DNA from: Chara braunii
Taxonomy: Eukaryota; Plantae; Charophyceae
Assembly: GCA_003427395.1 (NCBI GenBank)
Contig: BFEA01000020.1
Coordinates: forward strand, 3,121,986-3,185,985
Reading direction: 5' to 3'
Length of the DNA stretch: 64,000 bases
Shown here: positions 20,407 to 47,584 of the stretch, one piece after another
Layout of the letters: each line of letters begins with the position of its first letter
Position numbering within the stretch: the stretch's first letter is position 1
Notes under the pieces: model-generated
The model's database searches: none
Seen by the model: the letters and a program-made list of their open reading frames with translations, nothing else
What the model was told of the DNA's origin: nothing
Program-made: the position numbers and the translations under genes

Positions 20407-20447
<41 letters not shown>

Positions 20448-20647: not shown

Positions 20648-20691
<44 letters not shown>

Positions 20692-21545
20692 AACCGTGTG
20701 CTGACACTATCAGACCGAAGAAACCGCCCTTATCAACGGGCAACGTGAATCCGGAAGCGGGGCGACATGCACAAAGGACGAAAAATATGGTGGTGTATCT
20801 TTCCATGTTCTGGCGGAAGATTCATTCATATGTTGGGTGGTGGAGAGCGAAGGACCGATGAATCAAGTAAGCACGTAACGTATCTCTGGAACCTTTTTTT
20901 TTTTTTTTGAGAATCTTTGAACAAATGAGACTGAATCCTCCGCTTGAACATGGAAAGATACATTGCCATATATGAGGGGAGGTCGTGACTGTCAGTTCCG
21001 TCGTAGTAATAAGAAGAGAACGTTTTGAGAGATCGCGACCCTCATCATGACTGAATCTGGCCTACAAAAACCCTACCATACAGTCTGATACAAACTGCTA
21101 TTACCGTTGAGGTTATGACAGGTTGGATGCGCCGGGCGACACTCGTGGAAAAAAATTCTGATTTTCTTCTGCAATTTTTTCTTTTTATTAAAAAAAAAGA
21201 AATCCAGGAAAAATGGTTATTAATTCCGTCGTAGTAATAAGAAAAGAATGTTTCGAGAGATCGCGACCCTCATCATGACTGAATCTGGCCTACAACAACC
21301 CTACCATACAGACTGCAATACACACAGAGTGTTACATGGACTCCAGGTTACTAATAGCTTTCACGCCAACCCTACCATATGTGACGAAATACTAACTGTA
21401 TATATTATATATACGTTATATATATATGTAAAAAAAAAAAAAAAAAAAAAAAAAACACGTACGTGTATGCTGGTTTTTGGGCACGTACGCATACACGCAC
21501 ATACGTACGCGTATGCACCGCATACGCGTACGTGGTGCTACCCAG
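20220..21545. mobile_element. Non-autonomous TIR element (MITE-like, 8-bp TSD as in hAT-type elements)
   Basis: TSD CCCCGAAG at 20212-20219 and 21546-21553; TIRs CTGAGTAGCAC / GTGCTACCCAG (10/11); subterminal CATACG/CGTATG motif clusters at both ends; internal ~95-bp direct repeat (20995-21088 vs 21224-21315); no transposase. Confidence 0.88.
20399..20687 (+). repeat. (GT)n and (GA)n microsatellites flanking a gap
   Basis: Direct observation. Confidence 0.95.
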
Positions 21546-21579
21546 CCCCGAAGATTTTCGGGGCCATTAACCGCGAGTG

Positions 21580-22550
21580 GGATACCAGGGAACAATAATA
21601 AAGCAGATGGGCTGAGCAGGATAAATTGGGACAGGACGAAAGGCCATGTGCATGAAGGATCGTCGCCAGTAGATGACTTCCTGGATAAGGAAGAGGACGT
21701 GATGGTCCATATCAATGCATGGTCTGCATCAGTGGAGGAAATGGTAACACCTATGTGGATTACCCCTCAAGGGTATGAACGAAGAGAGGACATAGTCCTC
21801 AAACCGTTCGTAGAAGAGGATCCCTGGGGTGAGCAAGGGGTGGAATGGATGATGGAGTTGGCTCTCGTTGGGACTCAAACGTTGTGTGAAGAGCCATCCA
21901 TAATTGAAGACGGACTACTCCAGGCAGAAAGACACAAAAGATTGATCGGGGGAATGTATGTCCTGGTGAATACCCTAGTCCAAGATGAGGCCGCAATAAT
22001 AGATGCTTAGGAGTGTGAGAAAGAGAAGGGAGGAGACCAAGAGGAGGATGAGGAATTTGAGGAAGAGGAGATAAAGGAGGCATTCCAAGAATATGAGTAT
22101 GAAGGGATATACCTAAACCTAGAGTTGCTCCTTTCATGCGAAATAAGGAAGACAGAGGCAAGTCAGAGGGCTCTCAAGATGCGTCCGCATTTTCTGGTAA
22201 GGGACGACCATCTATTTATGTGAGGAAGAGGAGGTGAGCCCAGAAGGGTGATCTGTGGCCGTAACAGAAAAATTGATGTTATTGCTGCGCTACATGATGG
22301 AAGCGCAGGTGGCCATAAAAGTAAAAATGTCACCTTTGGATAAATATATGGACTTTATTTTTGAGAAGGAATGAGAGAAATGATTCGTATGTATTATGAA
22401 TCTTGTGTACAGTGTTAGGAAAGATCGTTTGTCAGGTATAAAGAACCACTTCACCCAAGATATGTACGAGAGGTTGGGGATGTGATTCATCTCAATCTGT
22501 TAATGATGCCATTGGGGGTAGGAGGATATAACTGTATCTTCGATGCACGG
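21580..22550 (+). pseudogene. pol: Gypsy pol fragment: RNase H C-terminus, linker, integrase H2C2 zinc-binding domain, start of catalytic core
   Basis: IPGNNNKADGLSR (RNase H end); ALHDGSAGGH...ESCVQC (HHCC); PLHP...GDVIHLNLLMMPLGVGGYNCIFDAR; several in-frame stops. Confidence 0.9.
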
Positions 22551-23758
22551 TGTAGAGCGCATCGACCCTCGCTTAAAAACGAGGGCCCTCCCGGCCATGT
22601 CACGCAGGAGTTTACCTACAACAGAACTTCAAAAGAAAACTCGGGAACGACGCATAACTTTCCGCGAGCCGCCGAGATGGACGAGGTTGCATCGCTCCTT
22701 CGCCGCTCTAACTGGGTGCGCCAACTGTACTTCCCACGGTCCCCTACGACAGGACAGGTTCCCACGGGGCATAAGCTTGCATCCCTAAGGGGCTGTCACC
22801 ACCCTTAGGGCGTATCCCTACCGAACTACTGATTCACGTGCGAAGGCTTTTAAATGCAATCGCAGAGGTAGATCAGCCGAGGGCTTTTGCTCGTCTCGCT
22901 GCAGTATAGGAATTGTTTCACTAAACGCCGAATGAACCCGAGCGTCGTTCGTTCCATGGGGCGCTGATCTCCCAAGACGAAGCGTACGCCGGTCAACTAG
23001 GACAGTCTCAACCAAGCGTGAAAACGATCCTTGGTCCCTAGCAATCAAACAACAAGAATCTCCATGCCTTAAAACAAAATCACACAATCCAAATCATTGG
23101 CTTGATGAGCTGGTCTGCCAAAGTGTCCCTTTTCAACCTGTATGACTGAAATAACTCTTATACTGTCACTCAATGATTTTTAATTGAAGACATAAATTAA
23201 GACAGACCCTACAATCATGACAGTTGAAGTTTGTCATAAATAATTTCTGCAAGTAAATACCACTGGTACCATGCAGATCAACAAGTGATTTGGTTCTTGA
23301 TCAATGTTTGAACTCTCGGTTCGACCACGTTTCCGTACCATAAGCAACTACTTGGAGGAGCGAGTGACAACTTTGTTGGTCGCTTTGTCCTCCTGGACAA
23401 TAATTACTCTTTTTGTTTCATGAATGATGGAGTATCCCTCTTCAATGCCAAGTTGCTTAAAACGAAAGGTTCTGTCTTCTGTTGCTTTGTCATCGTCATT
23501 ACACATGACATATTTTTCAACGTTCGTTTTTTATTCAACTTATTTTTATGCGAACGATTACCCCTCAATACATACGCATGATAGTGAAATCATCGGGCTA
23601 ATCCGAATACTATCCATCCGGTGGTCCTACCTACATAAAGTGTTTTGTCTTTGTTTTTAGATTACCTCGTGAAACCATAAATTATATGGTTTCCTCAACG
23701 GGACTGAGTCCATGCGAGGTGTTTTATGAAATCTGAGTAAAATTTCAGAAGACAATGT

Positions 23759-24295
23759 CTAATCCTGGTAGATCTGTCGCCCGTTGCGTACCTGTGCCTC
23801 CAACGAATCCAGACGCGTCAGCTCGTCGTCGTCGCAAATCAGAGTAGACATTCGTCCACATCGCATGACTCTAATAATCCGAGTATTATAGAAGGAGGTC
23901 ATCCGAGAGGTTAGTCTCCAAACTATAACTCAGAGAGGTGGACTAAGTCGAGTCTCTATCCCGGATCCGGACGACGCCGAAACGTCTACCGGACGAGGTA
24001 ATCTTGATACTCACAATGACTCGAGAGAGACATTGGAGATACTCACGCGGTGGAAATACAACGTATAACCGTAAAGCTTGTTGGAAGTTCGAGCCGTGTT
24101 GACTCTGAAATCCTCGCGAGTGTTAGGGAAAAATCCCTCGTCATTTCGAAGCAATCCAATGAAGCCGATCAATACGGTAGGAATACCATCTCGAACTCGT
24201 AAAAGTCGCTCTGCACTCCTGATAAGATCCTCCTCGGGCGTATCGCGAACCAACAGGTACCTTGGGATTGTCAAATCTCTTCGAGCTCCAGGCAT
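23759..24295 (-). pseudogene. Second orphan ORF in the solo LTR (~178 codons) with two in-frame TGA stops
   Basis: MPGARRDLTIP...SLESL*VSRLP...SPPL*VIVWRLTSR...RQIYQD*; both stops could be CGA>TGA decay; the ATG directly follows CTGACTTTGTTCTAATATGCAG. Confidence 0.5.
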
Positions 24296-24319
24296 CTGCA
24301 TATTAGAACAAAGTCAGAA

Positions 24320-24832
24320 TTAGTCGCGTTGATATTGCTCTGTTTCCTCCGCCTCAGCCTCCAATTCATCATCATATAATGGCTCGATGTCTACGATTGC
24401 GAACCTATTGACTCGTACCCGTTCTGCAAAATATATACCGAAGAAATACCCTTGTCGATCATTTAACCAAAGCACGTACCCAACGAACATCAACCTTATT
24501 TCCGCGGTTTCATCCACCCGTGGGTTGATCTCATATGACTGCAATACCACCAAGTTCATATTGACGAAGTGACGCTCGGGCAATGGCAGCGTGAACTCGT
24601 AATGAAGAACATCCAAGCCGGCCAGTCTCCTGAAAATAAGTTGTTTGGGAGGTCTTTGCGCACTTCCATCCCAAAACTGCGGAACGTCCTCCTCAGAGTA
24701 CAACTCTGACGAATTGTAAACAAGTCGGCCTATCCTCTCTACCCTTTCTCCATTACGCCTCTGGAGTTCGACCCTTTCAGCCGCCGAATCGCGGTCGTAG
24801 AAAAGGAACAAGTCCGAGGATCCCATAGCCAT
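24320..24832 (-). CDS. Intact orphan ORF (170 aa) inside the solo LTR
   Basis: MAMGSSDLFLFYDRD...acidic tail DDELEAEAEETEQYQRD; the ATG directly follows an acceptor-like TCTTTCTTTTTTCTTTCAG; no family recognised. Confidence 0.6.
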   Translation of the reverse strand: MAMGSSDLFLFYDRDSAAERVELQRRNGERVERIGRLVYNSSELYSEEDVPQFWDGSAQRPPKQLIFRRLAGLDVLHYEFTLPLPERHFVNMNLVVLQSYEINPRVDETAEIRLMFVGYVLWLNDRQGYFFGIYFAERVRVNRFAIVDIEPLYDDELEAEAEETEQYQRD

Positions 24833-25122
24833 CTGAAAGAAAAAGAAAGACAAATGTGTTTTAAGTTAACTCTTGCCCAAAGAGTATTATTCGGTTTTTG
24901 TGTTCCTTACAGTCCGTGCTTCTTATGACACGACCACCCACGTCAGGAGTATCTAACTTTACTCCGTTCAACTAGTAGGACATGAGTCATGCTGCTTGTG
25001 ACACCAACTCTCCATACGTCAGTGGTACCTAAGATGACCACTTAAAACAGGGGTGCTAAAGCAGTTTTCTTTTTACGCAAGGCGTCAAGAAATAACTTTG
25101 TTCCGTGTAGATGCCTTTTCCA

Positions 25123-25296
25123 TTACCCTAAGAGGTGGTCTGGGATACTCCTCTTCCTCGCCCGAGTATAAATCTCGAATCTCAGAAGTCGGGCCGTCTC
25201 TACCGAATCGGCATAGTACCCCTTCGCAAAACGGTCCACTATGAGTCGATAACAGGGCCGACCCCTAAGGCAACGAACCCCTGCCCCAGATGCCTC
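25123..25296 (-). CDS. Possible terminal coding exon (57 aa, no own ATG) in the solo LTR
   Basis: Acceptor-like TTGCTTTCCCTTTTTTTTAG, then open frame EASGAGVRCLRGRPCYRLIVDRFAKGYYADSVETARLLRFEIYTRARKRSIPDHLLG*. Confidence 0.3.
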   Translation of the reverse strand, partial: EASGAGVRCLRGRPCYRLIVDRFAKGYYADSVETARLLRFEIYTRARKRSIPDHLLG

Positions 25297-26089
25297 CTAA
25301 AAAAAAGGGAAAGCAACTACACGGCAGACAAGAAGAATCTTGTTGCCTAACGTCAAAAGTAAACTTGGATGAAAAAAAAAGAATTCATAGAAAGATAGAA
25401 TCATTCAGACTGACAGGCATAGACGGGAAAAGGGTCATTCGGGAAAGAATGGGTAACCTAAGGGATAAGTCTAAATACAATTGAACTTTTCTTCCTTGTG
25501 CTCACTTCGTTTCTCGTCATCCTCTTTCTTTTTTATTTATACATAGAACACAAACACAAAGATGAAAAAGTGAACCATTCTTTCACCGTCATCACCCTCA
25601 TCCATTTCAGTCCACATGTCGTACCTGTAGTCAAAACCCAACGACACACAGACCACCATGCATTCCTTTACCATTGTAAGAATCCCAGTCATACACGCAA
25701 GAACACACATCCTCTTCCCTTTTTCAATGAACATTCAGTGAAACAGGTCAAAGCAAGTGAGGGTTCACTCAGGTGTGAAGGGAACTGAGTCAATTTAACC
25801 GACCTTGAGTGACGCTGAAATGAAGATAATAACGGCTCACTCAAGAAAACCGTATAAAATTACGCCCCTTTGTCAAGAGACGGTTGTCTTCCAGTCATCG
25901 ACAAATAATCCACACCACTCCTTTCACCACAACCACCTGTCACAACGCCTCCTCACTATGTTTTCCAATGAGTGTCACTGCCACTGACTTCTACTGTTAC
26001 CGCATCACCATGCCGTCAAAATTCACACCATCTCAATCCTCCACTTCAGCGATACCTTCCCTACACCAAGGTCCGGCTGCCGCTAAATG

Positions 26090-26525
26090 TGGAACTTCTA
26101 CCGCCGGTAACCTTGCGTTGCCGCCGTAGAATTTTCACAGCCCTTCCGCACCACCGCTGGTAAGACCGGAGTCACCGCCGAAAAATTTAGGCATCTCTTT
26201 CGCACCACCGCTGATAAAACCGTAGTCGCCGCCGTAGAAATTTTGCAGCACTTCAGTACCACTGCAGTAAAACTTGTGCCGCCACTGCAGAAATTCGGCA
26301 GCACTTCGGCACCACCGCAGTAAAAACTTGTGCCGCCGCCGCAGAAGTTTTGCAGCACTTCGGTACCACCGCAGTAAAACTTCTGCCGCCGCTGTAGAAA
26401 TTCGGCAACACTTCGGCACCACCGCAGTAAAAACTTGTGCCACCGCCGCAGAAGTTCGGCATCACTTCGGCACCACCGCAGTAAAAACCAGGACTGCCGC
26501 TGTAAAATTCCGGCAGCACTTCCCT
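26090..26525 (+). repeat. ~53-54-bp minisatellite (about 8 copies, two related half-units)
   Basis: CACTTCGGCACCACCGCAGTAAAAACTTGTGCCGCCGCCGCAGAA.TT..GCAG at ~26249, 26303, 26356, 26410, 26463, with more diverged copies upstream. Confidence 0.92.
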
Positions 26526-27926
26526 ACTATAGTGGGAAAATGGCAGACCAAAATTGGTAAAATTTGGGCCCCGGGCCCAAATCTCACAGCGCCGCACTGC
26601 CGCAGTCCCGCAGTACCACTGGGTCTGTCCCGTGGGACCAACACCAACCAAAGGAGAGAAGCAAAGTGCTCCTTGCCTTAGCTATGGCTGCCCAGTCTTC
26701 CTCTTCGCGCTCCTCTGCAGACCTCCAACTTCTTCTCCTTGCCTCAGGCAGCACCTCAGCAGCCCAGCAGCACTCAAATGCACGTCACACAATGACAACA
26801 CGAATGCTTTGTGAGGCAGCCGGGGGCAGCTGGCTGTTTTATAGTGGCTGAGGAGGGCTGGTCGTCACTCCAGCCCCCAGGCAAAATCGCGGGCTCACTG
26901 TGAGCCCTTCATCTGCCAAGATCCAAGGCTGACTGTGGCCGCACGACAACCACAACCTTAGTGTGGGGCGGTTTTTTTAACTGCTCTATTTTATTTTTCT
27001 TTTTCTTTTTCCCAGCTATCTCGGAATCTAGCGAGATAGCTACGCTCCTGCCATTTCCAAATATGTTTTTCTTTTATTTTTCTAATAAAGGGTTGAAAAG
27101 ATACAACCCTTTTCAGTTTGATGTATCTGGACCTTTTTTCCAGGGTAGATACATCGAGGAAAAAGGCTGTATCTAGCCTTTTCCTTAGTGGCCCTTTAAT
27201 TTCCAGGCTCCCTTCAAAAATGGGAGCCTGACAGTTACCTCTGGCAGAAGCACCACGTGAGGACAAGTGTCCTCACACTAAATAAAGAAAGGAAAAGAAA
27301 AAAAACTAACTTCCTAAATTCTACCGCACCTGGCTTTTACCTTGGCCAGGTGCATGCTGTTGCATACAACAACCCCCTTCCTTTTTCTCTGCTGTCCTCC
27401 CCTGAAAACGGGGAGGCAGTTGGCAAGTTGGGAGGAGTAGGTCCTCCCCCGCCCAACTCCCATGCCCCTCTCTCTGTCTCTCTCTCCCACGCGAGTACTG
27501 TGAGCCACGAGATTCAAGATCTCGTGGCCAGAGTGAGTAGGCAAAAAAAACGAAGTGGAAGCTTTTATGCTCCCACACAGTCCCAAGGACTGTTCTAGTC
27601 CTACCACGAGGCAGTTGCCTCGTTTTCGTTTTCTTTTTCTGCTTTTTTTTTTTTTTTTTTTTTTTTACAGTTTTTCAAGTTTACTTCGCTTCTTAGTCCT
27701 TTCCCGTTGCTTTCCCTTCTGGCTGTACTTCAACGGCCACGAACGGGGAGGAACAAAACAACAACAAACAAACAAAAAAAAGCAGAAAAACAAATAAAAA
27801 AAAACTTACTTGAAATTGTTGTCTGGCGGCCGCAGCAACAACAGTGGCCTTGACCACTGCTCATGACTGTATTCTTCCACGTTTCCGCGGAAGATTCATT
27901 CGATTTTGATCATCCTATACGTGGTG

Positions 27927-27996
27927 TGTAGGTAGGTAGGTAGGTAGGTAGGTAGTCTTTTTCTCCCTCTCTCTCTCTCTCCCTCTCTCTCTCTCT
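27927..27996 (+). repeat. (GTAG)n followed by (CT)n microsatellites
   Basis: Direct observation, just upstream of the hammerhead. Confidence 0.9.
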
Positions 27997-28048
27997 GTCA
28001 CGCGCGCCCGTACCTAGACGTTATTAGCGTTGGGTTCAGGTGCAATGG

Positions 28049-28106
28049 TAGACTGTCGAGGCTGCAGCCTCCCGATGAGTCGGTGAAACCCTGACGAAAC
28101 AGTCTG
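28049..28106 (+). ncRNA. Type III hammerhead ribozyme motif with a U4>C core variant
   Basis: Stem III AGACTGT/ACAGTCT; GTC cleavage triplet (cut after 28057); stem I GAGGC-TGCA-GCCTC; core CCGATGA; stem II GTCGG-TGAAACC-CTGAC; GAAA. Confidence 0.85.
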
Positions 28107-29381
28107 GCACAAGTTACCCGTTCGTTCAAAACAAACGGGTGTCCAAAAAAAAAAGGAAGAAAAATAACGGAAAAAAAAAAAAAAAATCTAAACTGAATCT
28201 AAGAAAANNNNNNNNNNNNNNNNNNNNNNNNNNNNNNNNNNNNNNNNNNNNNNNNNNNNNNNNNNNNNNNNNNNNNNNNNNNNNNNNNNNNNNNNNNNNN
28301 NNNNNNNNNNNNNNNNNNNNNNNNNNNNNNNNNNNNNNNNNNNNNNNNNNNNNNNNNNNNNNNNNNNNNNNNNNNNNNNNNNNNNNNNNNNNNNNNNNNN
28401 NNNNNNNNNNNNNNNNNNNNNNNNNNNNNNNNNNNNNNNNNNNNNNNNNNNNNNNNNNNNNNNNNNNNNNNNNNNNNNNNNNNNNNNNNNNNNNNNNNNN
28501 NNNNNNNNNNNNNNNNNNNNNNNNNNNNNNNNNNNNNNNNNNNNNNNNNNNNNNNNNNNNNNNNNNNNNNNNNNNNNNNNNNNNNNNNNNNNNNNNNNNN
28601 NNNNNNNNNNNNNNNNNNNNNNNNNNNNNNNNNNNNNNNNNNNNNNNNNNNNNNNNNNNNNNNNNNNNNNNNNNNNNNNNNNNNNNNNNNNNNNNNNNNN
28701 NNNNNNNNNNNNNNNNNNNNNNNNNNNNNNNNNNNNNNNNNNNNNNNNNNNNNNNGAGCAGCTCTTCAATATGAAGAGCTAGCCCAGGTGATTTCCCTGC
28801 CTGCGGCCTTGCAGGCTCCGCCCGTATGTGGCCTAGCAGGCCTGCCCCGGCTATGGCCTAGCAGGGCTACCCTGCCTGTGGCCTGCCGTTTACCTGCCCG
28901 TGGCCTACCCATACCGGTTAGCCGCGTGACCACGGCTTGGTCGGCCATCGAACCGGGTAAGCCTTGGCATTTGCCTATCGGCTCCCAGGCTCGAAGTCAG
29001 ACCCCGCAGCCCTAAAAAAAACAAATGCTTCCTACACCTCCTGCGTTGTGGCCCTATACTCCGGCGCAACCCTCTTTTTAGCCCATTTAGGCCCTGAATC
29101 ATAGGTAGGATAGGTTTAATTTTAACATTTCTTTATCCGCACATTCCTGCGGTTTTGACAATTCGTAGCCTTGTCGTTCACATCCGATACCTCCGGACGT
29201 CACATGCGTCCGGACTAAGTCCGAAAACTCTTAGTTTCTCAATCATAGGTCAAGTCGGAATAAACTTTTGGCAGACGTCAGTCTCATCAAGACTATTATT
29301 TCAACGCAAGAGTCGGACAACGTCCGACGTTCAAAAACACCGGCAAATACCCTTGTCAAGGTTTTTGCCCCGACATCACGG

Positions 29382-30170
29382 AACAACGTCACGAGCTTTG
29401 TAGACGACAGGGTCATACACTCTAAGACTGGTGAGACAATGGCCCAATCCATTGAAGAGTATTACCTCCGATACCCGTTTGTGGTGGAGTTTCTAATGGA
29501 CAGGGGGTCAGAGTTTACTTGTAAAGAAGTGAAGATGCTCCTAGACGAATATGGGGTAACTGTGAAATATACGACTGCAACACATCCCAAAGCGAATGCG
29601 TCAGTGGAAAGATGACATAGTACACTTACGAACCTCCTTGCGAAGTGGACAGGCGGAAGATTCATTCAATGGCCGAAGTATTTGAGGGCAACCTTCTTTG
29701 TGGAAAATGCGACTGCTAAATGAATCACGGGGTATGCGCCAGCAACACTTTGGTATGGGAGGCACGCGACATTTCCAACCGAAAGCATCCTAAAGACTTG
29801 GAGACGGCAAGACCTCGAGACTAATTTGTCATTTGAAGACCTTCTCGATTTAAGAGCACGCCAAATCGGAGCTACGAAAGATAGAATCAGGGATGTGGCT
29901 AACAAATCAGCAAATAGCTGCACCGCAGATAAGTTCACGTGAGATTGATTGACGCGCGTTCGAAGAGAGCCATTAAAGGTTGGAGATATTGTATTGTTGT
30001 ATGACTCCTCGTTAGAAAAGCAATGGTCCCGAAAGCTCGACAAGAGATGGCTCGGACCATACAGGATTGCCCGTTGTGGAGACTATGGATAATATCAGAT
30101 TGAGGAACCGAACAGGACGACACAAAAGGACTGGGTGTCATGAGGCAAATTAGCAAAATTTGTAGCACAG
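29382..30170 (+). pseudogene. pol: Remainder of the element A integrase (catalytic core and GPY/F region)
   Basis: FLMDRGSEFT, HPKANASVER, WPKYL, TGYAPATLWYGR, KVGDIVLLYD, RWLGPY; in-frame stops. Confidence 0.92.
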
Positions 30171-30310
30171 GAAGGGGTAAGTATGCATACGATAAGAATA
30201 AGATAACAAAAGGGTAATTAGGAGGTTAATATAAATTAGGAGTCAGAATTAGAGAGTTAATTGAAGAGTTTTGTTTGGTATGGTCAATGCTAAAGGTTGT
30301 AACCACCCGT

Positions 30311-30355
30311 ACTGATTCCCTTGTGTGCGTCTTGTTTTTCTCGCTTGTTCTGCAG
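30311..30355 (+). promoter_or_regulatory. Predicted 3' splice site upstream of the extra ORF
   Basis: CTGAT branch-like motif, long pyrimidine tract, TGCAG; ATG at 30366. Confidence 0.6.
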
Positions 30356-30365
30356 GCGTAACTTT

Positions 30366-32759
30366 ATGAAGACGACCATGCCGAAGGGTGGGAGGGACAA
30401 ACAGCCTCAAGAAGGTCCAGGAGGCGGGGAATCATCACGATCACATCAGCGAGACAACACTCCAATCTATGACGATGGTAGCCCAGATATGTTCATCGAG
30501 CAGTTCACGCGGCATGCGACAGACAGAGGATGGTCAAAGGGAACGATGATCCAACATTTGAGGGGTACGGGAGAGATGGGAGAGAGGATTGAGGAGTTGT
30601 GGACGCAAGGAGGGAGCTGGTTAGAAATAGAGGTGGGATTGCGGTTGCTGCAGCCATCACCGATAGGACTTGATGGGTTGCCCATTTGTATGACTGCAGA
30701 CAATCTGGACGAGTTCTTTCCAGCATATGAGGAGCACTGCAGGACAGTGGCCGTCATGAGAGAAGAGTACATGAGGAGGTCCCACAGTGGGCAGTGCCTG
30801 GGCTACGGAGAGACATCGCCCAAATTGGGCGTGCGGCGCGAGACTGGGAAGACTGCAAGGCCCAGATAAGGAGTGTCTGTGGGTTGTTTCGACACGACTC
30901 TCCAAGACCGCGAGTCGAGAGGAGGAGGAGGAGTGATTGAGTACGTGGCAGGAAGGAGACAATCTGTCTCTCGCCGATATAGAGAGGTCATTGATTTGGG
31001 GGACGATAGTCCACCTTTGTCAACCATTCACGAGACTGAGCCAGAGAGGAGAGTTACCCCTGAGAAGAAACATGAAGTGAGACCTGTTGTAGAAACTATC
31101 CTTGAGCTGGGGGACCGACCAAAGGCAGAGATGTTGGAGGAAGCGCGACCGATTGCGAATTTAGAGGAGTTGGAGACCCATTCGGAACCATCACAGTGAC
31201 CGTCGTCAGAGGCTGTTCCTGCCCCCACATCAGATGCGGCCCCTAGCAGTGTGGAGGCCGACAGAGTGATCGACACGCATCTTACGGCTGGGTTGGCATC
31301 ATCGGCAGGGGTTGCTAAGGCACCATCAACGGGTTCACCCAGAAAAGGGGCTCAAACTGAGCTAGTGGTATGTTGGGGAGCTCAGACCGAGCCAGTGGTA
31401 TGTGGGGAGACCCAATGACGAACCAGTCATCAGGCAAGGGAGACCCTACAGGAGCGTCAGGCCAGGGTAAAGGAAAGACTCGAGGAATTGGGAAGAGAGA
31501 AAGATAGGCATGAGGCAGCAGAAACACTACCAGACCCACCAGCAGATATGGGGTCGCAAGAGAGAGGAGTAGAGGCAATCTGGGCTAGATGGCTGGAGCA
31601 GAGAGACGCAGATCGTCAGAGACCTCAGGGCTTTGAATTTGTGGACATGAGGCTGGATCGTCGAGATGAGCTGATGGATTCTAGTTTTGTAGCAGCACGA
31701 AGGGCAGATCAGCGTTTGGAAGAGAAGATATGACGGCTTGCAACAACCTCTTTCGATAGGTACTCGATGTTGAGTGCTAAGTTGCAAGCACAAAAGCTAA
31801 AGATGGAAAGTCTGACCAAGCGATTGGAAAAGGTAGAGGCTGAAAACAAGTAACAGAAGGCGGCAGCCCAAGCAAAGGATGCTGAATGGGAGAGAAGACT
31901 TTGAGAGATGGAGGCGAAGATGGAGAAGTTCCAATCCACCACAGTGGTAGACTAGACCGAGCAAAGCAGGTACGACGTCCAAGGTCAAGCACTGGATGGT
32001 CTGTTTGTACAGAAGAAGGGGACGAAACCATCTCAATATCAAGGTTTGGGTAAGGTGATTATGGATCCTGCCGAGGCTAAGGCAAAGAAAGAAAGGGAGA
32101 AGGGAAACTTTGAGTTAAAGGCCCCAACAAAATTGGCCTCTCAGTTACCAATGCCTATGCAGAAGGAGGGAACGGTGGGAGAGAAGGCTCAAGTACCTAT
32201 GACAGAACCAGGGGAAGGGCAAGCAATGGAAATAACTCAGGCACCTGAGCCAGAACAGGTAGAGAGATCTTTAGACAGACTACTAGAGGCGCCCATGGAG
32301 AGGTTGATGTGCTTACCTACCTCAGCCACGGTCAGTGCACCTACCCACACACTAGGAGAGGAGGGTGCATATGGGACAGCGGCGAAGATTTGGTTAGGGA
32401 TGCCACTAGGGTTGCCCGAGAGTACGATGAGTCCTACGCTGACCATGGAGAAGGAGAGCCAGCCGTCAGAGAGGGATCTTCCTGAGATTGTTGCCGCAAG
32501 TGCTATGGAGGTAGATGTTCCCCTGGAGACGCCACAGAGGCTGGACACCCCAGAGTATGTACCACCGCTTGGCAAGCCTGGAGAGGGGATGAACTCATGG
32601 TTGGCGGGGGCAGCCATGGGAGAGTCGGTACCCATACCGACACAAGAGGGAGCCACGACCCAGGCGACAGATGCCCTCTCATCATCAACCCCTCATGAGA
32701 GGAAGAGAAAGAGGATAAGGAAGCACGAACGGGAACAGAAGGTTGCAGGCCCAAGTTGA
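30366..32759 (+). pseudogene. Extra ORF downstream of integrase (env position): Gag-capsid-like N-terminus, coiled coil, E/P-rich tail, basic C-terminus
   Basis: Fragments 30321-30869, 30873-31199, 31488-31733, 32046-32759; PIYDDGSPDMFIEQFTRHATDRGWS resembles retrotransposon Gag motifs; KRKRIRKHER at the end; no obvious TM segment. Confidence 0.65.
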
Positions 32760-34870
32760 TTGGAGGAAGGCCTTGTGATTGTATTTAGTAGGGAATCTTT
32801 CCTAATAAGGTCCGGAAAACGGAAAGGACGGAGTGTGGGTTGTTGAGTAGTTGTGTGATAGACTTGGTATAGGATTGTATTAGGATTGTACATTCTTAGA
32901 GACACGTGTGTTGTAGTCCTTGTTCAAGATAGCACGTTAGTATGTATATAGAGATCTTTGGATTATGATGTGATGTGATTGGGTTGTTTTGCTTTTTCAG
33001 TATGGTAACCATGGGGTTATGTCAGATCATACTTCATAGGCTACCTTTTCTATTTCTTTTTAGCATCATTGAAGGGATGAGGGGATTCGACTATTGAAGT
33101 CGTGGTACCTTTGTGTGATACTTGGTAATATTGTGGTCATTCCTAATTCCTTTGGGCTAGGGATTTCTTCCCAACTTTGGATATATTAACAATATATTGG
33201 TTACCTTGTTTCATTTGTAAGGTTGATTCAACTCTAAGTACACAAGTGGCTTCGAGGCTATTCTTGTTCCGTTGAGTTGGGATATCCCAACTTTGTACAT
33301 AATTAGGATTCGAGGTTACTTCTTGGTCTGATGACCACGATCACTCTCATGTGTGTGGACTTATCATAGCGTATGACTATTTTGTGTGAAAGGTATATGT
33401 GATGCATTTCTTATACTTTATGAGTGTAAGATGTATAAATTATCTACTCTTTTGTATACTTGGGCAACCTTCCGTATGGACGGACAAGGGGCCTAAGTAT
33501 AAGAAATAAAAATGTCGTTTTATTTTAAGGAATTGGTGTAAAGGTCCCAAAGGACCTATGGAATAGTATGATTGAATGTTTGTCCATACCATATGTTTTT
33601 TAGAATTAAGACAAGGACCCACAAGTTGGTCTCTCGGTATGAGTGTTTTATGGTTGACTCATCTCCACGTCGGAGGTGGTTATGAGATTTTATGAGTGAT
33701 TGCCCTTCAAAAAGGAAGGTGGTTTAAAGAGGCATGAAAAACAGTTTGATTGATGAAGTCTGACGAGAAAGACCAGGAGACTGACTTATTGGTGAAATTT
33801 TGGAATGTCGCACATATGAGGAAATTTTGAGAGATGTCTTTAAGATATGTGGTCTACCTTGCTTTGATCAAACAAGGGAGGCCACGACCCTGTGAATCTG
33901 GCAATGATTTTCTGTACTTTTTTTTGGAAAGGAGGTCGTGTCCCCTATGCTGTTCCATAGCGAGCTGGTGAATATCTTTGAACCAAGCAGACCTCTGCGT
34001 AATCTCGCAATAGGCCTGAGTTTACTGCGACACACTGTCAAACCACTATGATGCTAATCTTAAGGCATTTATAAGAGACTCAGCTAGGGGTCAAACTGAC
34101 ATCACTGGGGTGCAACCCCCATTGTTGGCTGTTGACCGGCATAACCTAGCAGCGGTCTCACGTCTCACCAAATGGGTAACACTTGAGGGGTGTGGCCGCC
34201 TCAGAGAATCTTATTCCCGCGGGATCTCAGAGGGATAAGACTCAAGTCTGACATGTATTTTGAGTCCTGATTAAGTGTTTCATCAGGAAAAGTTGCCTAT
34301 TGTTGCACAACCAACAAGGGCACCGCCTCTAATATAACAACGCGACGGGCCGTAGATCTGCCTCGATTAACCAGACTATGGTGAGCCAAGATGAAGACCT
34401 TCCCACCTGTGCTAGACTCCAAGACGGGTGTTGTTTGGATTATGAGATTATATGGATAGGCCAACAATGTTTGGCACGAAAATATTCTTCAGGCTCAGAA
34501 AGGTCTCGATTAGGGTCCGCGTCTAAAGCTTTGGCCTCGTACGCGAGCACAAGACGATGGACACTCAACGAAAAGTCGGATGATGTGTAGGGCTAAGGGA
34601 GAGGGTGTCAACTGTTTACCCAAAATCGAAATTCAGGCTGTAGTACTAATCAAGTATCCTTGGAAATCCGAGGTCAGGAATCAGGAGACCCAAGTTAGAA
34701 CCCTGACAGCTCAAGGTCGTAAAGAGTGTTCAGTTGGTTGACCACTCAAACAGAACCATACCGGTGGATCGGATTGGTTATTTTCTCATCAGCAAAAAAA
34801 TGTTATGCATCATTTGAATTAGTTGATTATCCGATGCGACGGGGACGTCGCTTAATAAGGTCCGGAAAGC

Positions 34871-37800
34871 TGTAGGCGTGAATACCCTTACAAGGGTATT
34901 CATGCGCATATTTGCACTTCACATAATTAGTGTCTGAGGCGATACTAGAAGCTATAATTTATATATAAGTATCACGCGGCCCACGCTCGACTCATTTTTA
35001 ATCGAACCATGGGGCGTGCGGGGGGAGAGTAGAGAGTGTGTGGGCGTGCAGTTCTGAGACGCGCGTGATGATTTTTATCTTGATATTATAGAGTCGGCGT
35101 TTCCGCCGACAAAATTTTAATTTTTGATTAAAGCTAGGAAGGGTTTTCTTTTATTGAAGTGATCGTGGTGCGTCTATGCTCATACAGATGGTGTCATCGG
35201 CAATGGTATTGCCTTTGAGCGATAATCGAACATGTGAGAGGAAATAGATCGCGAACAAGGGCTTTCGCATGGTGGACGAGGAAGCTTGGCGGTCGTGGGT
35301 TCGGCTGATAGGTCGAGGTGTGGCCTTAGAATGTTTCGGTAGACCTGTATGTCGCGTGGTAACCGCTTATATAGGTGTCCGCTAGTGTCAGACTCAGCCT
35401 TGGGTCTAACACTACTGGTATGGTAACGAACATTCATTCAAGGGATCCATGGATTGAGATCAGCACGGCAGCACAGGAGCAGTGGAGCGGCGAGGAGGAA
35501 CTTGGGGTTGAGGGTCTGGCGGGGTTACCCCACCTTGGTTTTGCTATCAACAAAGACGGAGCAAAACTGGCGGTCCCTTTTTCTCGTCGGTCGTTTCCTG
35601 ACGATTAAAATCTTTCTAAATATTTTACTATTTACCGTCGTACTATTATTATTTTTATGCTTCGACTTTCCTAGAATAGGATGTAACAATGGAATACGGG
35701 CCGTTAGTGCCCGTCACGACAGTCGAGGACCTTGAGCAAATGCCTCTTTTGACGGGCCCGTTCGGGTTCCTACGTATTCAGGATGCTGGTGAAATCCCTT
35801 TATCCCGCCCGTCTTGGAACGAGGACCGAGAAGCTCAACGTGCATGTGAGCCGGTGGGTGATTAGCTGACGAGGCGGAGTAAACCTGAGTGGCAGGGACC
35901 CTCCGCGAGGACACCGTCCGCCAACCTCAATCTGATGAGAGAGGTTTGAATCTGGGCATGACCCGTCCCACTTTTTGTTGTGTGAGGTTTGAGTATGAGC
36001 ATGCCCTTTGAAACTCGAAAGACGGCGAATGGTGCTAAGGCATAGTGGCGGAGGGCGTAGATTGTGCACATCTGCGCACATAGGATCCTTCCCCACTTCA
36101 GTTTTCAGAAGTTCCCATTTGAATCTTTGCTGCCACCACCAAGATCTGCACCGGGACCCACTTCACTCAGGCTTATGCTGCAGACTTTGCAGCAGGCCCT
36201 CGCCCTTCTACTCATTGGGGCGTCGGAATCAATGGCGCTGAAGCACCCGACTTATGCTCCGAGGCTGGCTAGGCAACCAGCAGCCTGGTACAGTTGGTAC
36301 ACCTATGAACTGTCGAAAATACAGACCGAAAGTTTACCACAAATATCATATTTTTATTATTTATTTGTTTTATTTATCTTCGTTCACTAAAAATTTTTGT
36401 GCAAGATTTGTGGACGGCGCCATGTGACCAGCGGAGTACCAAAGTGTTATTGCTCCAAACGGCCAGGGCCTTGTCCCATCTGAAAAGGTACGGCGGTGCG
36501 ACCCCTTGGAATCCGGAAGATGGTGAACAGTGTCGTGGGCACAGTCTGCCCAAAGGCACCAGTGGGAGGCTGCCGAGGTGTTTGCTGTGTGGCAGGCTGT
36601 CTCGGAAGTTGTGCACATGGAACCCTTACCCACACTTCGGTCTTCGAAGTTTCTTTTGAATATTTGCCTACCGCCACCAAAATCTGCGCTTGGAACCCGA
36701 AAGATGGTGAACTGTGTCGTGGGCACAGTTCAACAGAGGGCACCAGCTAGAGGCTGCCGCAATGCTTGCTGTGTGACAGGCTGTCCCGACAGCTGGTAAA
36801 CAAGGCATGAGCATAAAAGGGTCACGGGTACTGCGGTAAAAACCCGCAGCGATGCTGATCTGTAAATTGTCCTTCGGATCTGGGTATAGAGCGGAAGACT
36901 ACTCGAGCCATTTAGTTGTTGATTCCCTCTGAAGCTTCCCTCTGGGTAGCCGGAGCTGAAGCGAGATGCAGTCTGTGACTGCATGATCCACCAACCACGA
37001 TCTGCTGTGAGAGGTTTCAGTAGGGTAATGCCCGTTGGGCACAGTGGCGGAGGGTGCAGATTGTGCGCAGCCACTTACATGAGACCCTCTCCACTTTGGT
37101 CTTCAAAAATTCCCATTTGAACATTTGGTTACGACCACCAAGATTTACATTAGGGCTGGCCTACCGGTGCTCATGCTGCAGGTTCCGCAGCAGGCCCGTG
37201 CCCTCGATCCCGCGACGTGTGTTTGAGTCTGTCCGTTGAAAATTCGGAAGGGTGTAAGCTCTGCCTGAGCAGAGCTTGACCTGAGGCGCAGTGGAATAAG
37301 CGTGCAGTAAATACGGGCGAAAAACTAGTCGGACGGCGTTCTCTTCGGAGTTTTTCCCCAGATTGACTCAAGCCGCCAAACAACCTTCACTAGATCGTCG
37401 GGCGGTGCGCTACGAAGAAAGACTAATGGGAGGGACGCAAAGTTGTGGGGGCGTGAGCAACAGATCGAACGTGGATGTGTAGAAGAAATAGTGATAGTAT
37501 AGAGAGAGAGGAAGAACGAATTAGAGAAGAGAGGGGTAGCGCAGGAGAGCGCGGCAAGACCGGAAGGAAAACAATAGAGACAATGACGAAGGAAGAACGA
37601 ACTTGGATGCAGTTTCGTGCCAGGTACGTTCGAAGAAAGGGGGAGGAGACAACGTTGGAGCCAGAAGCTATGGCGGAATGAAAAGTTACGGCGTGCTCGT
37701 TTCCTGATAAACTCAGGCAAGACAAGGTGGTAAGTTGGGGTTTTTCTGTGTGACAAACTGATCTGAGGCATCAAATTTGGGTTCTAGAAGGCGGATTGAC

Positions 37801-38100
37801 CACTACCAGAATAATAAGTTGTGTGCGAAGGAATCGAGAGCAGAAGGAGAACGAAAAGCAAAGGGGGAAAAGGTTATAACTCACTCATTTCTCGACAGAA
37901 TCGAGTATGGTAAAAGGCTAGACGGGGGTTTTGGGACATGGCGAAGAGATTGGCAGTACCGGATTTCGATTTTGGGCAGCAATTTGGCTAGTGTGAACAC
38001 AGAAGGTTAACGACACCTATTTTTTTCATTATTCTAGGAACACTCGGTTGACAATCCTGATTTCTACGAGTTCAGACCAATGTTTTCACTAGCATTCTTG
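34871..38100 (+). repeat. LTR (U3 part), same superfamily as the other two giant LTRs; 3' end not found
   Basis: Starts TGTAGGCGTGAATACCCTTACAAGGGTAT versus TGTCGGTGCGAATACCCTGACAAGGGTAT (minus strand from 52509); GTGTG.GCG...AGTTC..GACGCGCGTG is shared between 35036-35075 and the reverse complement of 52322-52365. Confidence 0.75.
35780..37290. pseudogene. Mosaic of degenerate LSU (25S/28S) rRNA fragments in both orientations
   Basis: Sense: CCCGTCTTGGAACGAGGACC (cf. CCCGTCTTGAAACACGGACC), ACCCGAAAGATGGTGAACT, GGGTATAGAGCGGAAGACTACTCGAGCCATTTAGT. Antisense: CCACTTCAGTTTTCAGAAGTTCCCATTTGAATCTTTGCTGCCACCACCAAGATCTGCACCG at ~36093, related copies at ~36612 and ~37070. Confidence 0.85.
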
Positions 38101-38149
38101 AAAAGTTTTAAGATTTACATTGTTGGTATGGTGCCCCGTTTACGGAGAG

Positions 38150-41070
38150 GGGAGGAGGACGGAATGGGCAATTTCAAACCTTCACACATTTCACCAGTTC
38201 AGTCTGTTCTCAATCTTCACTACCGTCGAAGCAAGGAAGGGGGGAAGGATGAAAAAAACAATTTCATGCCTTTACCGATTTCACCACTTCAGTTCCTTCA
38301 CAGCCTTCACTACCGTCCAAGAAACAAGGGGAAAGGACGGAAGGGGCAATTTCAGACCTTCACGAATTTCACCACTTCAGTTTCTTCACATCTTTCACTA
38401 TCGTCTTTGTATGAGAGGGGGGGGGCGATTTCATGCCTTCACCGATTTCGCCACTTCAGTTCCTTCACAGTCTCCACTACCGTCCAAGCAAGAGGGGTGG
38501 AGGATGGAAGGGGGAATTCCATGCCTTCACCGATTTCACCACTTCAGTTCCTTCACAATCTTCACTACCGTCTAAGCAACAAGGGGGGGAACGGAAGGGG
38601 CAATTTCAGGCCTTCACAAATTTCACCACTTCAGTTCATTCACAATCTTCACTACCGTCCAAACAAGGGGGGTGGAAGATGAAAGGGGCAATTTGAGGCC
38701 TTCACGGATTTCACCACTTCAGTTCCTTCATAATCTTCACGATCGTCCAAACAACAGAGGGGGGGGAAGGGACGGAAGGGACAATTTCATGCCTTCACAA
38801 ATTTTGCCACTTAAGTTCGTTCACAATTTTCACTACCGTCCAAGCAAGGGGGGTGGATGACGGAATGGGAAATTTCAGGTCTTCACAAATTTCACCACTT
38901 CAGTTCATTCACAATCTTCACTACCGTCAAAGCAAGCGGGGTGAAGGATAGAAGGGGCAATTTTATGCCTTCACCGATTTCACCACTTCAGTTCCTTCTC
39001 AACTTTCATTATCGTCTATGTAGGAGGGGGGGGGGNNNNNNNNNNNNNNNNNNNNNNNNNTTCATGCCTTCACCGATTTCACCACTCCAGTTCCTTCACA
39101 ACCTTCACTACTGTCTAAGCAATAGGGAGGAAGAACGGAAGGGGCAATTTCAGGTCTTTACAAATTTTACCACTTCAGTTCGTTCACAATCTTCACTACC
39201 GTTCAAGCCAGGGGGGTGGAGGATGGAAGGGAATATTTCAGGCCTTCACAAATTTCACCACTTCAGTTCATTCACAGTCTTCACCACCGCCCAAGCAAGG
39301 GGGGTGGAGGATGGAAGGGGCAATTTCATGCCTTCACTGATTTCACCACTTCAGTTCCTTCACAACCTTCACCACCGTTCAAGCAAAGTGGTGAAATTCG
39401 TGAAGGTCAGAAATTTGTGAAGGCCTGAAATTACCCTTTCCGTCCTCCCCCCCACTTGCTTGGACAGTAGTGAAGGTTGTGAATGAACTGAAGCGGTGAA
39501 ATCAATGAAGGCATGAAATTGCCCCTTCCTTCCTCCTCCTGTTGCTTGGACGGTAGTGAAGGTTGTGGAGGAACAGAAGTGGTGAAATCCGTGAAGGCCT
39601 GAAATTACCCCTTTCATCCTTCACCCCCCTTGTTTGGACGGTAGTGAAGATTGTGAATGACTTGAAGTGGTGAAATTTGTGAAGGCCTGAAATTGCCCCT
39701 TCCATCCCCCCCCCTTTTGCTTAGAACGTAGTGAAGGTTGAGAAGGAACTGAAGTGGTAAAATCGGTGAAGGCATGAAATTGGCCCTTCCGTCCACCCCC
39801 CCTCTATTACTTGGATGATAGTGAAGGTTGTGAAGGAACTGAAGTGGTGAAATCCGTGGAGGCCTGAAATTGCCCCTTCCATCCTCCACCCCCTTGCTTG
39901 GACGGTAGTGAAGATTGTGAATGAACTGAAGTGATGAAATTTTTGAAGGTCCGAAATTGCCCTTTCCGTCCCCCTCCCCTGTTGCTCAAACGGTAGTAAA
40001 AGTTGTGAAGAAACTGAAGTGGTGAAATCAGTGAAGGTATGAAATTGTTTCTTCCATCCTCCACCCCCCTTGCTTGGACGGTAGTGAAGACTGTGAATGA
40101 ACTGAAGTGGTGAAATTTGTGAAGGCGTGAAATGTTCTCTTTCATCCTCCACCCCCTTGCTTGGACGGTAGTGAAGATTGTGAACGAACTGAAGTGGTGA
40201 AACTTATGAAGGCCTGAAATTGCCCCTCTGTCCTTCCCCCCTGTTGCTTGGACAATGGTGAAGGTTGTGAAGAAACTGAAGTGGTGAAATCGGTGAAGGC
40301 ATGAATTTGTCCCCCCCCTCTTCCCTCCTGCATGGACGATAGTGAAAGATGTAAAGGAACTGTAGTGGTGAAATCGGTGAAGGCATGAAATTGTTCGTTT
40401 CATCCTTCATTTCCCTTGCTTGGACGGTAGTGAAGATTGTGAACGAACTGAAGTGGTGAAATTTGTGAAGGCTTGAAATTGCCCCTTCCAGACTTCACCC
40501 CCTTTGCTTGGACGGTAGTGAAGATTGTAAACACACTGAAGTGGTGAAAGTAGTGAAGGTCTGAAATAGCCCCTCGCCTCTCCTTTCTCTTGGTTTGGAC
40601 GATGGTGAAATATGTGAAAGTACTGAAGTGGTGAAATTAGTGAAGGTCTGAAATTGCGCCTCGGACCTTCTTTCTCTTGGATTGCACGATGGTGAAAGAT
40701 GTGAACGTACTGAAGTGGTGAAAATAGTGAAGGTCTGTAATTGTCCCTCGGACTTCCTTTCTCTTGGTTTGTACGATGGTGAAAGATGTGAACGTACTGA
40801 AGTGGTGAAAGTAGTGAAGGCCTGTAAGTTGCCTCGCCTAGGTGAAATTAGTGAAGTCTTGAAATTGCCCCCTCCTTCCTCTCGAGACCCTGAAAGTTGT
40901 GAAAAATGTAAAGTGGTGAAATTGGTGTAGGTCCCTCCCCAAAATTGCCTCGTCTAGGTGAAATTAGTGAAGTCCTGAAATTGCCCCCTTCCTCCCCTTG
41001 AGACCCTGAAAGCTGTGAAAAAAGTGAAGTGGTGAAATTAGTGTAGGTCCCTCTCCTAAAATGCCTCGCC
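38150..41070. repeat. ~88-bp satellite with an internal orientation switch at ~39386
   Basis: GGGGCAATTTCAGGCCTTCACAAATTTCACCACTTCAGTTCATTCACAATCTTCACTACCGTCCAAGCAAGGGGG on + from 38150 to 39385, reverse complement from 39386 to 41070. Confidence 0.95.
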
Positions 41071-41250
41071 TAGATGCATTTAAACTACTGAACAACACAA
41101 CCTCACAACCCCCATTCATTATTGCAGCTTCCTTTTTCATCATGAAGAACACATCCCCCACCCTGAATTCAGGCCAAACAAAACACAACAAAATTCTCAC
41201 TTCACATTTTTCATCCTTGAAATTTCAGGTAGGTGATAACCACTTGTGCG

Positions 41251-45329: not shown

Positions 45330-47584
45330 CCTGTCGAGCGCATCCCTCCGACACGGCAAAGGGCAGCGAGGGACCCTTTCGGCCGCGTCACTCAGGAGTT
45401 TGTCTATTTCCTCGTTGCGAATATACACATAGAGCTTCCATAAGCCGCTCTGGCCGAGTGCGCCAGCCATACCTCNCGCGAGCCCCTACGACAGGATAGG
45501 GCCTACGCGAGGCACAACTTGCCTCCACCTTACGGGAGTTGTCACCTCCCTTCGGTGGGCGTATCCCCGCCGAGCTACCAGTCCACATTACGAAAGCTAA
45601 TCAATTGCAATCGCAGAGGTGGACCAGCCGATGACGTTTCTCGTTCGCTGTAGCATAGGGGGTACGAGTGGTATTACGCCTCTATCGAACCCGTACGAGA
45701 ACCGACATCTTGGGGGCTAAGGTCCCAAGCGCGACTCGTCGTCGGTCGACTAGGACGTATCCCACTCACCATGCGTACACCACACTACGAAAAAAAAATA
45801 AAACACACACACACACATACATCAAACAATGCGACAACACTCCTAGTCCCTTAGTAGCCATCCCATAACTCTACGATGCTTAAATCAGATAGGTGTCACG
45901 CGCGAGACTTAGTATAAGATCGCGTGGACGCAGGACTAACTCATATCGATTCGCAACGTAAGCGTACACAAGCGGTCGCAATGATGGTGTACTATATAGT
46001 ACCCATACTTATGCGGTCCTCGTTAATCTCGAGGGTCGCATTCAACACTCAAGTGTCGGCTGACACGCGCCTTGAGGGTTAATCTCTCGACACTGGACAA
46101 CCTCCAAGTGCGGTTGAAAACCACACCCTCTTCTACACCCTGCGGAGAGTGGGTGGTACACAGGTTCATACCAGTGGTGGAAATCGTGTCTTATGGCCCT
46201 GGAGACCAACTCCTTCCCCTAGGGCCTGGAAACGAGTCAAGGGGTTTGACTTTGACGGTTACCACGGACTACAACGTGCAGCTATGACAACTCCGAAAAA
46301 CAAAAATACGTCGAAGGCCTCCCTATCCCAAAATCACAACCTTGGGTAACCTTTTCGGTTGGCACCAACGACCTATACTGACTCTGGACACACATGTACA
46401 CATACGAATCACTTGATCTCATAACTCTAAACACTAGGACGGGAGAACATCGTGCGCAAGACTTTGATATAAAGTTGTGCGGTTGCAAGCCCTTCCTACA
46501 TCAACTGGCGATGCTAGTCATACGCTGCAATCGCAGTTTCGGCCTCGCGATATTGAATGGCTGAAGGAATATATCGTGAGGGGTTACCCTTCACGATATT
46601 GAACGGCCGAAGGACATGTCGTTCAGACCTCGCAATATTTCTGGCCTCAGGGTTGGGTGTCTCGACGGGCAGGGCACTTAGGTCCTGTGTGGAGGGGTAG
46701 TCCCTCCTTGCAGGGCTAAGCCATGGGGCGTCCTAGACAAGGACCTCGAATTTCAGGCCCAGGACTAAATGTCCGACTATATCAACTCAAAATGCAAAAG
46801 GAGTCTCGCTTTTTCTCTCGAAGTCAGAGGCCGGTAGGCCCCTACGTGTAGCCATAAATAGGCGGCGCCGTCACTCATAATATGTATAAATATGGGGTTG
46901 TTTATATGGGACGATCGTTTCTCATAGTCACAGTGGGGCCCCTTGTAACCATACTTGTATGTTGTCGCAGGCAGTTACATCCAAACATCCAACTCACCAC
47001 ACATATCTGCAATCACATGAAAAATCCCACGAAGGATTTCACACGCTACACGGGGTTAACTTCAACCCATCTCTGTACTCACACCCTTTGCTTTAACCAA
47101 TCAAGCCTCACTCTTGTGCAACTCCTCAAAATAAAATACTCAGTACTTTTCTTTAAATGGTCATTCAAGTAAAGTCCGGGCGAAAACATAACAAAACAGT
47201 TCAAATCACAAGGCTAAAACCTTTAGGTTGAGTGACAAGAGTGGATTGGAGTTGAGTAAAACGACGAATCGGTAACCAACATGTTATCAGTGATAACAGA
47301 AGGTGATCCTCAAGGGATCAACCTGGATCTAGTCCAAGTCCTGAACCCAATCGATTCAGTTGGCCTGTAACACAAGACAGGTCAACGCTCAAGACAAAAC
47401 TTATAAGTTCATGGAGAATAATCTCCACATCACCATCTCACTCAATTCATCTTATTTAAGTAGGCCTAAGTCTACCTCTAGGCAAGTGCCGAAAGAAAGG
47501 TAGAATCATGACAGAATCTTCCCTATCCAGGGTGGATTACCAGAATCGCCACCTATCAAAATATAATATAACTCCCCTTAAACT

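Follow-up and report, generated by a model that had tools for sequence, protein, structure and literature searches.

What is a patch of large-subunit (LSU) rRNA pieces, turned now one way and now the other, doing among broken retrotransposons and satellites, and how did it come to be there? The window analysed here (the whole 64-kb stretch of Chara braunii DNA, to which all coordinates refer) holds about nine degenerate pieces of eukaryotic LSU rRNA between 35745 and 37218, sense and antisense mixed. A preliminary description had taken these pieces for rRNA captured by template switching and then amplified inside the LTR of a retroelement, where they might act as an rRNA mimic or give rise to dsRNA. 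The feature is real and was correctly described but is of an ordinary kind: a pseudogene cluster of LSU rDNA that has been scrambled, amplified locally and has decayed. The fuller reading that we favour, and which we consider probable though well short of certain, is that of a decayed and rearranged rDNA pseudogene or ‘orphon’ cluster lying in a wreck of Ty3/gypsy elements and satellites, with no present function.

The rRNA origin of the pieces is supported by three kinds of search. As reference we used 109 real LSU loci from metagenomes, fetched with a 17-base motif copied from the window, and 33 eukaryotic LSU segments from these loci that span the region made up the nhmmer profile with which the whole window was searched on both strands. 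Mapping to an LSU model, which the preliminary description had proposed as a check, returned significant LSU matches: seven nhmmer matches with E values from 6e-22 to 3e-5 (all at or below 3.4e-5), beside four others that were not significant (E 0.27 to 3). By blastn of the whole window against the 109 loci, six LSU-like intervals were found in the patch and one more at 53130-53286, the remaining matches being only to a low-complexity part of one locus. Rfam gave no match in the 64 kb at the gathering score; with E-value thresholds, LSU_rRNA_eukarya (model length 3401) matched three times, at 36697-36921 on the plus strand (38.9 bits, E 5e-7, model 816-953) and twice inside 35690-36300, where the minus strand scores 28.4 bits (E 7e-5) over model 1335-1720 and the plus strand 23.7 bits (E 0.0014) over model 530-880. 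The window pieces thus fall in model 530-1720, with the sense pieces at about Rfam LSU positions 640-1000 and the three antisense pieces at about 1335-1540, a span of about 900 nt of LSU (domains I/II to III). No SSU, 5.8S or other part of LSU was found in the 64 kb by Rfam or by blastn against the 109 LSU loci, and Rfam gave no 5S match in the window. Our count of about nine, drawn from nhmmer, Rfam, blastn and internal repeats, bears out the ‘about ten’ sense and antisense pieces first reported, and the three antisense intervals given at that time (36075-36222, 36612-36690 and 37070-37210) agree with nhmmer to about 10 nt.

Read from left to right, the patch begins with a sense piece, S1 (35745-36038, plus strand), which corresponds to about Rfam model 640-880 (Rfam E 0.0014; nhmmer 35745-36029, E 3.6e-17, profile columns 36-287) and contains an internal 43-nt tandem duplication (35917-35963 and 35960-36006). 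It is followed directly by the first antisense piece, A1 (36039-36300, minus strand), the first 20-35 nt of which (36039-36075) constitute the sense-to-antisense junction; A1 runs from about model 1540 down to 1335 (nhmmer 36231-36076, E 6.1e-22, columns 817-972; Rfam 28.4 bits, E 6.9e-5). A candidate sense piece after A1 (36227-36259, nhmmer E 0.62) was dropped, Rfam aligning the same bases antisense with low confidence. From 36300 to 36494 there is an AT-rich spacer with a non-LSU stretch, unlike S1 in sequence (z 0.1), and an LSU origin for 36395-36500 was rejected, its local alignment to S1 being at chance level (z 0.1).

The second unit opens with s2 (36495-36611, plus strand), short and degenerate, from about model 805, for which nhmmer alone gives only E 0.27. 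Next comes a2 (36610-36697, minus strand; about model 1540 down to 1440; nhmmer 36692-36610, E 1e-11, columns 895-975), the best-kept copy of all at 85% identity to real LSUs over 80 columns, followed by s3 (36682-36795, plus strand), a duplicate of s2 (36505-36611 and 36689-36795 are 79-81% alike) that nhmmer matches at 36690-36716 (E 3.4e-5, columns 266-292) and at which the Rfam alignment starts. The sense piece S4 (36785-36976, plus strand; about model 820-1000) is matched by nhmmer at 36843-36971 (E 1.1e-19, columns 331-456), by Rfam at 38.9 bits, and by blastn with 72% identity to real LSUs, at E 1e-22 to 5e-24 (the value varies with the search space). The third unit consists of a sense part (36987-37067, plus strand), seen in the three-unit alignment as a copy of 35917-35963 plus the junction (74%, internal repeat family; the likeness to 35917-35963 is at 36987-37033), and of A3 (37068-37218, minus strand), a duplicate of A1 (nhmmer 37198-37078, E 8.1e-11, columns 848-969). 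Outside the patch there is one lone sense piece, S53 (53132-53300, plus strand; nhmmer 53155-53261, E 8.8e-8; also found by blastn), which has no antisense partner and lies 500 nt past the truncated end of a gypsy element (element C, below). The AT-rich leaders ahead of the LSU blocks seemed alike at first, but only a 38-nt motif common to 35697-35734 and 53051-53087 (z 6.8) stands out, which may belong to a variable region of the source gene; what else they have in common is low-complexity.

With sense and antisense blocks scrambled in this way, the patch is not a collinear rDNA pseudogene, as had been claimed from the start. The two LSU regions involved had also been described as close to one another in LSU structure, and indeed they form a long-range helix: in the Rfam consensus structure ACCAAG (about model 664-669) pairs with CUUGGU (about model 1450), and among the 33 aligned real LSUs at least 90% are complementary at seven columns in a row. 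A location of the junction at this helix was considered and rejected, the helix halves being at about model 664-669 and 1450 and the junction joining about 900 to about 1540. The two halves lie on opposite strands in the window, so that pairing within one transcript is impossible.

The junctions themselves suggest how the patch was built. All three antisense pieces start at one LSU position (nhmmer profile columns 972, 975 and 969), the sense side of each junction ends at about the same LSU position, and the same sense segment precedes every antisense piece. Independent captures would not coincide in this manner, and a breakpoint common to three junctions therefore points to one chimeric unit that was later duplicated. 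Units 1 and 3 align through the junction (36039-36206 with 37038-37204, 72%, E 6e-16), and 78 of the 287 columns in the alignment of all three units are invariant. The repeats are spaced at 184 nt (s2-a2 and s3) and at 998 nt (units 1 and 3), the local units number only two to three, and the copies differ from one another by about 19-31%. Most likely the sense-antisense chimera was made once and then copied.

Contigs assembled from DNA runs of the same organism extend this picture beyond the locus. Among the contigs listed, at least one covers 35848-36283 with 84% identity and at single-copy depth, and because it crosses S1, the junction and A1, there must be at least one further locus with the same mosaic. 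The amplification first proposed is thus borne out both by the one breakpoint in three units and by this contig from elsewhere. The contigs also bear on whether the mosaic order might be an artefact of assembly from joined repeat-derived reads, as could be suspected from the own-locus contigs among those listed, of which the long ones end at 35864 (35089-35864) and resume at 36991 (36991-38139), leaving the middle of the patch (35865-36990) uncovered; but the independent contig from the other locus has the same S1-junction-A1 order, and the three units, which are 19-28% apart, would hardly collapse or be mis-joined with ease. We regard an artefact as very improbable.

A second reading of the same evidence is that the alga has a separate repeat family whose body is the chimeric LSU module, be it a satellite derived from rDNA or a non-autonomous mobile element, and that a few nested or tandem copies of this family happen to lie here. 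The periodic local duplication and the paralogous contig are both compatible with such a family, as is the additional LSU piece at 53132-53300, and an rDNA-derived satellite does exist in tomato (PMC2679016). Moreover, 28-39 contigs per run match from 36449 rightwards with a common loose end at 36449 (in the three of four runs listed), and summed depth in the bin 36320-36624 reaches 1,600-3,300 compared with about 8-25 in single-copy bins. This depth, however, adds up all matching contigs in 305-nt bins and does not count copies; a large share of it may stem from true rDNA. The highest depths, almost all of which carry a letter other than that of the window (141,734 of 141,947 at 35776), most likely do come from true rDNA. 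Nor were any defined termini, target-site duplications, poly(A) or other RNA hallmark seen at the patch, which counts against a mobile family as it does against capture from RNA; S53 lacks an antisense partner; a 119-aa frame across the second junction, taken as a possible gene model over other copies, found no match in a protein-database search at near lengths; and one bridging paralogue is what appears among the contigs listed. Taken together, we find a distinct repeat family unlikely, albeit worth bearing in mind. A bolder version, in which the chimera would be the core of an undescribed, mobile or satellite-like Chara repeat family derived from LSU, with hundreds of copies whose transcripts, carrying antisense LSU, would feed rRNA-directed small RNAs, we consider a long shot.

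The setting of the patch is relevant to the claim that it sits in an LTR. To our knowledge, the Cassandra elements are the sole well-known case of rRNA-gene sequence inside LTRs. We mapped the context by tblastn with Chara braunii polyproteins and by Pfam, and found three broken Ty3/gypsy elements; the retroelement ORFs have their best protein matches, without exception, in sequences annotated as Chara braunii. Element A (21582-32723, plus strand) is 5′-truncated and begins mid-pol, its pol is interrupted by a 6.8-kb insert (22551-29375), and the integrase (29376-30173) is followed by an extra ORF that reaches about 32.7-32.9 kb. Element B (45005 down to 41177, minus strand) retains gag, protease and the start of RT and is truncated where an 88-bp tandem array ends, while element C (57904 down to 53825, minus strand) is truncated after RNase H. 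The 88-bp array (38150-41080) is a palindrome with mutually inverted halves (38157-39384 and 39411-40575), and two 90-93-bp arrays (1-6390 and 14000-19810) are inverted copies of one satellite to which the 88-bp array is unrelated. With the palindrome and the inverted arrays, inverted rearrangements are common locally. The LSU patch is outside any intact rDNA unit, with gypsy remnants and satellites around it.

It is in this setting that the preliminary description envisaged a capture of rRNA itself, through template switching by reverse transcriptase, into the LTR of a retrotransposon, and its amplification with the element. The patch does lie 3 kb past the coding end of element A and on the same strand, a purine-rich tract (32700-32742) is found 3 kb upstream of it, at least one paralogue has the same junction, and transposable elements with rRNA-derived modules are known (Cassandra and SINE28; PMC10946416). 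But the window holds no second copy of 32700-38150, self-BLAST giving only three weak matches of 56-99 nt, and no LTR pair was found in it, although the 5′ LTR of element A may simply be absent given the truncation of that element at about 21.5 kb. Upstream of its gag, element B, which belongs to the same superfamily, holds no sequence like it. Depth along the supposed LTR is very uneven: the sums over matching contigs range several thousand-fold across the region (8 to 76,000 per bin), with about 8-25 in 30.2-33.3 kb, 12,000-23,000 at 34795-35099, 45,000-76,000 at 35710-36014 and 150-240 at 36625-36929, and differences of this size between bins argue against a single coherent LTR. The coding part of element A is itself at single-copy depth, so that its family is not abundant at 80% likeness, and template switching would have to occur two or more times, at separate steps of reverse transcription, to give both orientations. 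The placement of the patch in an LTR is thus not borne out, and capture from RNA within an LTR seems to us quite improbable. As to the first event alone, the sequence is compatible with either a DNA-level or an RNA-level origin, and we infer, as the preferred reading, that the history was one of DNA.

Could the patch nonetheless have a present role, supplying antisense-rRNA transcripts or small RNAs, or mimicking rRNA? The sole point in favour is that a plus-strand transcript would hold stretches of about 80-190 nt antisense to LSU in three places. Against it stands, first, the extent of decay. At columns invariant across eukaryotes (in at least 32 of the 33 real LSUs), a yardstick from which the source gene's own LSU may differ, 42 of 243 positions are changed (17%), 31 by transitions and 11 by transversions. 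The copies have moreover diverged from one another, as given above, and have done so largely on their own: each of the three pairs of antisense copies shares 15-17 invariant columns, of which one site per pair is altered in both copies, and at only one of those three doubly altered sites do both copies have the same base. Substitutions are thus mostly private to each copy, which indicates that most of the decay postdates the duplication.

Preservation of rRNA helices, which the preliminary description had suggested as a further check, was examined with an RNAalifold structure supported by the real LSUs, the null being a shuffle of each piece's own substitutions and P the fraction of the null at or above the observed value. 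The answer differs among pieces. Five of the six are no better than the null: canonical pairs number 16 of 19 in A1 (P 0.08), 7 of 9 in a2 (P 0.60), 14 of 17 in S4 (P 0.40), 14 of 18 in A3 (P 0.16) and 7 of 11 in S53 (P 0.83). The exception is S1, where 24 of 28 pairs are canonical against a null mean of 16.6 (P 0.002). S1 spans a variable expansion region, and its excess of pairs would represent lineage-specific compensated differences inherited from the source gene.

Nor is there internal complementarity from which dsRNA could form, the sense and antisense pieces being from different LSU regions and hence not complementary to one another: inverted repeat pairs reaching 20 nt are absent, and inverted matches extend to 10 nt at most. 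Nor can the pieces yield a working rRNA, being truncated, non-collinear, mutated at conserved sites and below the Rfam gathering score. The suggested present roles as rRNA mimic or dsRNA source accordingly find no support, and on the letters of the locus we would put a working function among the least probable of the readings considered here.

We therefore return to the decayed pseudogene cluster, made up of pieces of the nuclear LSU rRNA gene. Its end state is what the window displays, and its history we infer in four steps. An rDNA fragment would first have landed outside the rDNA array. One DNA-level rearrangement, perhaps an inversion or a template switch during repair, may then have joined sense LSU at about model 900 to antisense LSU at about 1540. 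Unequal crossing-over or segmental duplication could next have produced at least three local copies, spaced at about 184 nt and about 1 kb, as well as one or more copies at another locus. Finally, the copies would have decayed independently and neutrally.

The value of the locus is mainly one of annotation. It illustrates that degenerate rRNA-gene fragments feed the repeat-rich DNA of a large streptophyte-alga genome, and that they can be scrambled and multiplied locally. They can also lead rRNA masking, small-RNA mapping and gene prediction astray. A literature search turned up no account of LSU fragments in Chara repeats, nor of LSU within LTRs, which is weak evidence of absence given that few subscription journals were covered by the search. 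Comparisons can be drawn with four known systems.

Two of these are mobile elements with rRNA-derived cargo, which is known to comprise 5S rRNA (Cassandra, 5S-SINEs) and the LSU 3′ end (SINE28) (PMC10946416, PMC4994717). Cassandra TRIMs are small plant elements that carry 5S rDNA with its Pol III promoter in both LTRs (PMC10946416), whereas the Chara patch is LSU, has no 5S match and has no demonstrable LTR pair; the 30 nt that precede its second direct repeat (36957-36986) are also not rich in purines. SINE28 (Longo et al., 2015, PMC4994717) is a mammalian dispersed repeat built from LSU rRNA. The Chara pieces resemble it in deriving from LSU rRNA, but they map to model 640-1540 of 3401, form a decayed chimera and lack SINE hallmarks. 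The patch thus fits neither the Cassandra/5S-SINE type nor the SINE28 type; were it a true repeat family after all, it would be the second dispersed repeat built from LSU rRNA, after mammalian SINE28.

The other two systems are rDNA that has strayed or degenerated. Robicheau et al. (2017, PMC5381670) describe degraded rDNA units and fragments in the human genome, and the Chara patch is like these human orphons in being rRNA-gene DNA outside a working unit, truncated, mutated and of the nature of junk DNA. It is unlike them in comprising only about 900 nt of LSU, in being scrambled between sense and antisense and locally multiplied, and in belonging to a streptophyte alga. In tomato, fragmented 25S rDNA lies among Ty3/gypsy sequences and was multiplied by unequal recombination or segmental duplication and not by transposition (Jo et al., 2009, PMC2679016). 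There, too, Ty3/gypsy elements, AT-rich stretches and tandem subrepeats lie between the rDNA pieces. The tomato units share 89-94% identity with real rDNA and have 18S, 5.8S, 25S and IGS still in order (PMC2679016), whereas the Chara pieces are about 15-30% diverged, represent part of LSU only and possess a sense-antisense junction. With these differences in mind, the degenerate rDNA array of tomato is the closest precedent for the mechanism proposed here.

The tandem repeats of the window include two arrays of a single 90–93-bp satellite, each of about 6 kb (1–6390 and 14000–19810), which are mutually inverted, separated by about 7.6 kb and about 70% identical to one another, with a monomer that is T-rich on one strand. 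The 88-bp tandem array that lies between the LSU rRNA patch and element B, a truncated gypsy element, is itself a palindrome: its monomer is oppositely oriented in the two halves (38157–39384 and 39411–40575), the orientation flipping near 39400.

Near the LSU rRNA patch, the short segment 34795–35099 has a very high summed contig depth of 12 000–23 000, a total over all matching contigs of the sequencing runs rather than a copy number. About 100 contigs per run end within a poly-T run at position 35069, suggesting that the minus strand carries an abundant SINE-like element here. Inverted copies weakly related to this segment lie at 51875–52509.

Element A, a 5′-truncated Ty3/gypsy element, carries about 2.4 kb of additional coding sequence downstream of its integrase (30312–32723, plus strand), which matches several polyprotein models from Chara braunii over their C-terminal portions, with 30–37% identity, and for which no Pfam family was found. 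The element is also interrupted by a nested insertion of 6.8 kb (22551–29375), whose position corresponds exactly to the junction of residues 1345 and 1344 in the reference polyprotein. This insertion contains a 54-bp tandem-like repeat (26109–26522) and a stretch (22702–22910) that is 73.5% alike to 45444–45659, upstream of the gag of element B.

Within the same insertion, directly ahead of a low-complexity stretch that is open in all six frames (28079–29015), lies the only hammerhead ribozyme copy found in the window, a full-length, plus-strand match to the type III model (RF00008; 28050–28105; whole-window E = 2e-6; 44.4 bits, below the gathering score of 48.5). The GUC site and all three stems are present, and the core reads CCGAUGA where CUGAUGA is expected. 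This hammerhead could be a remnant of the retrozyme or Penelope type.
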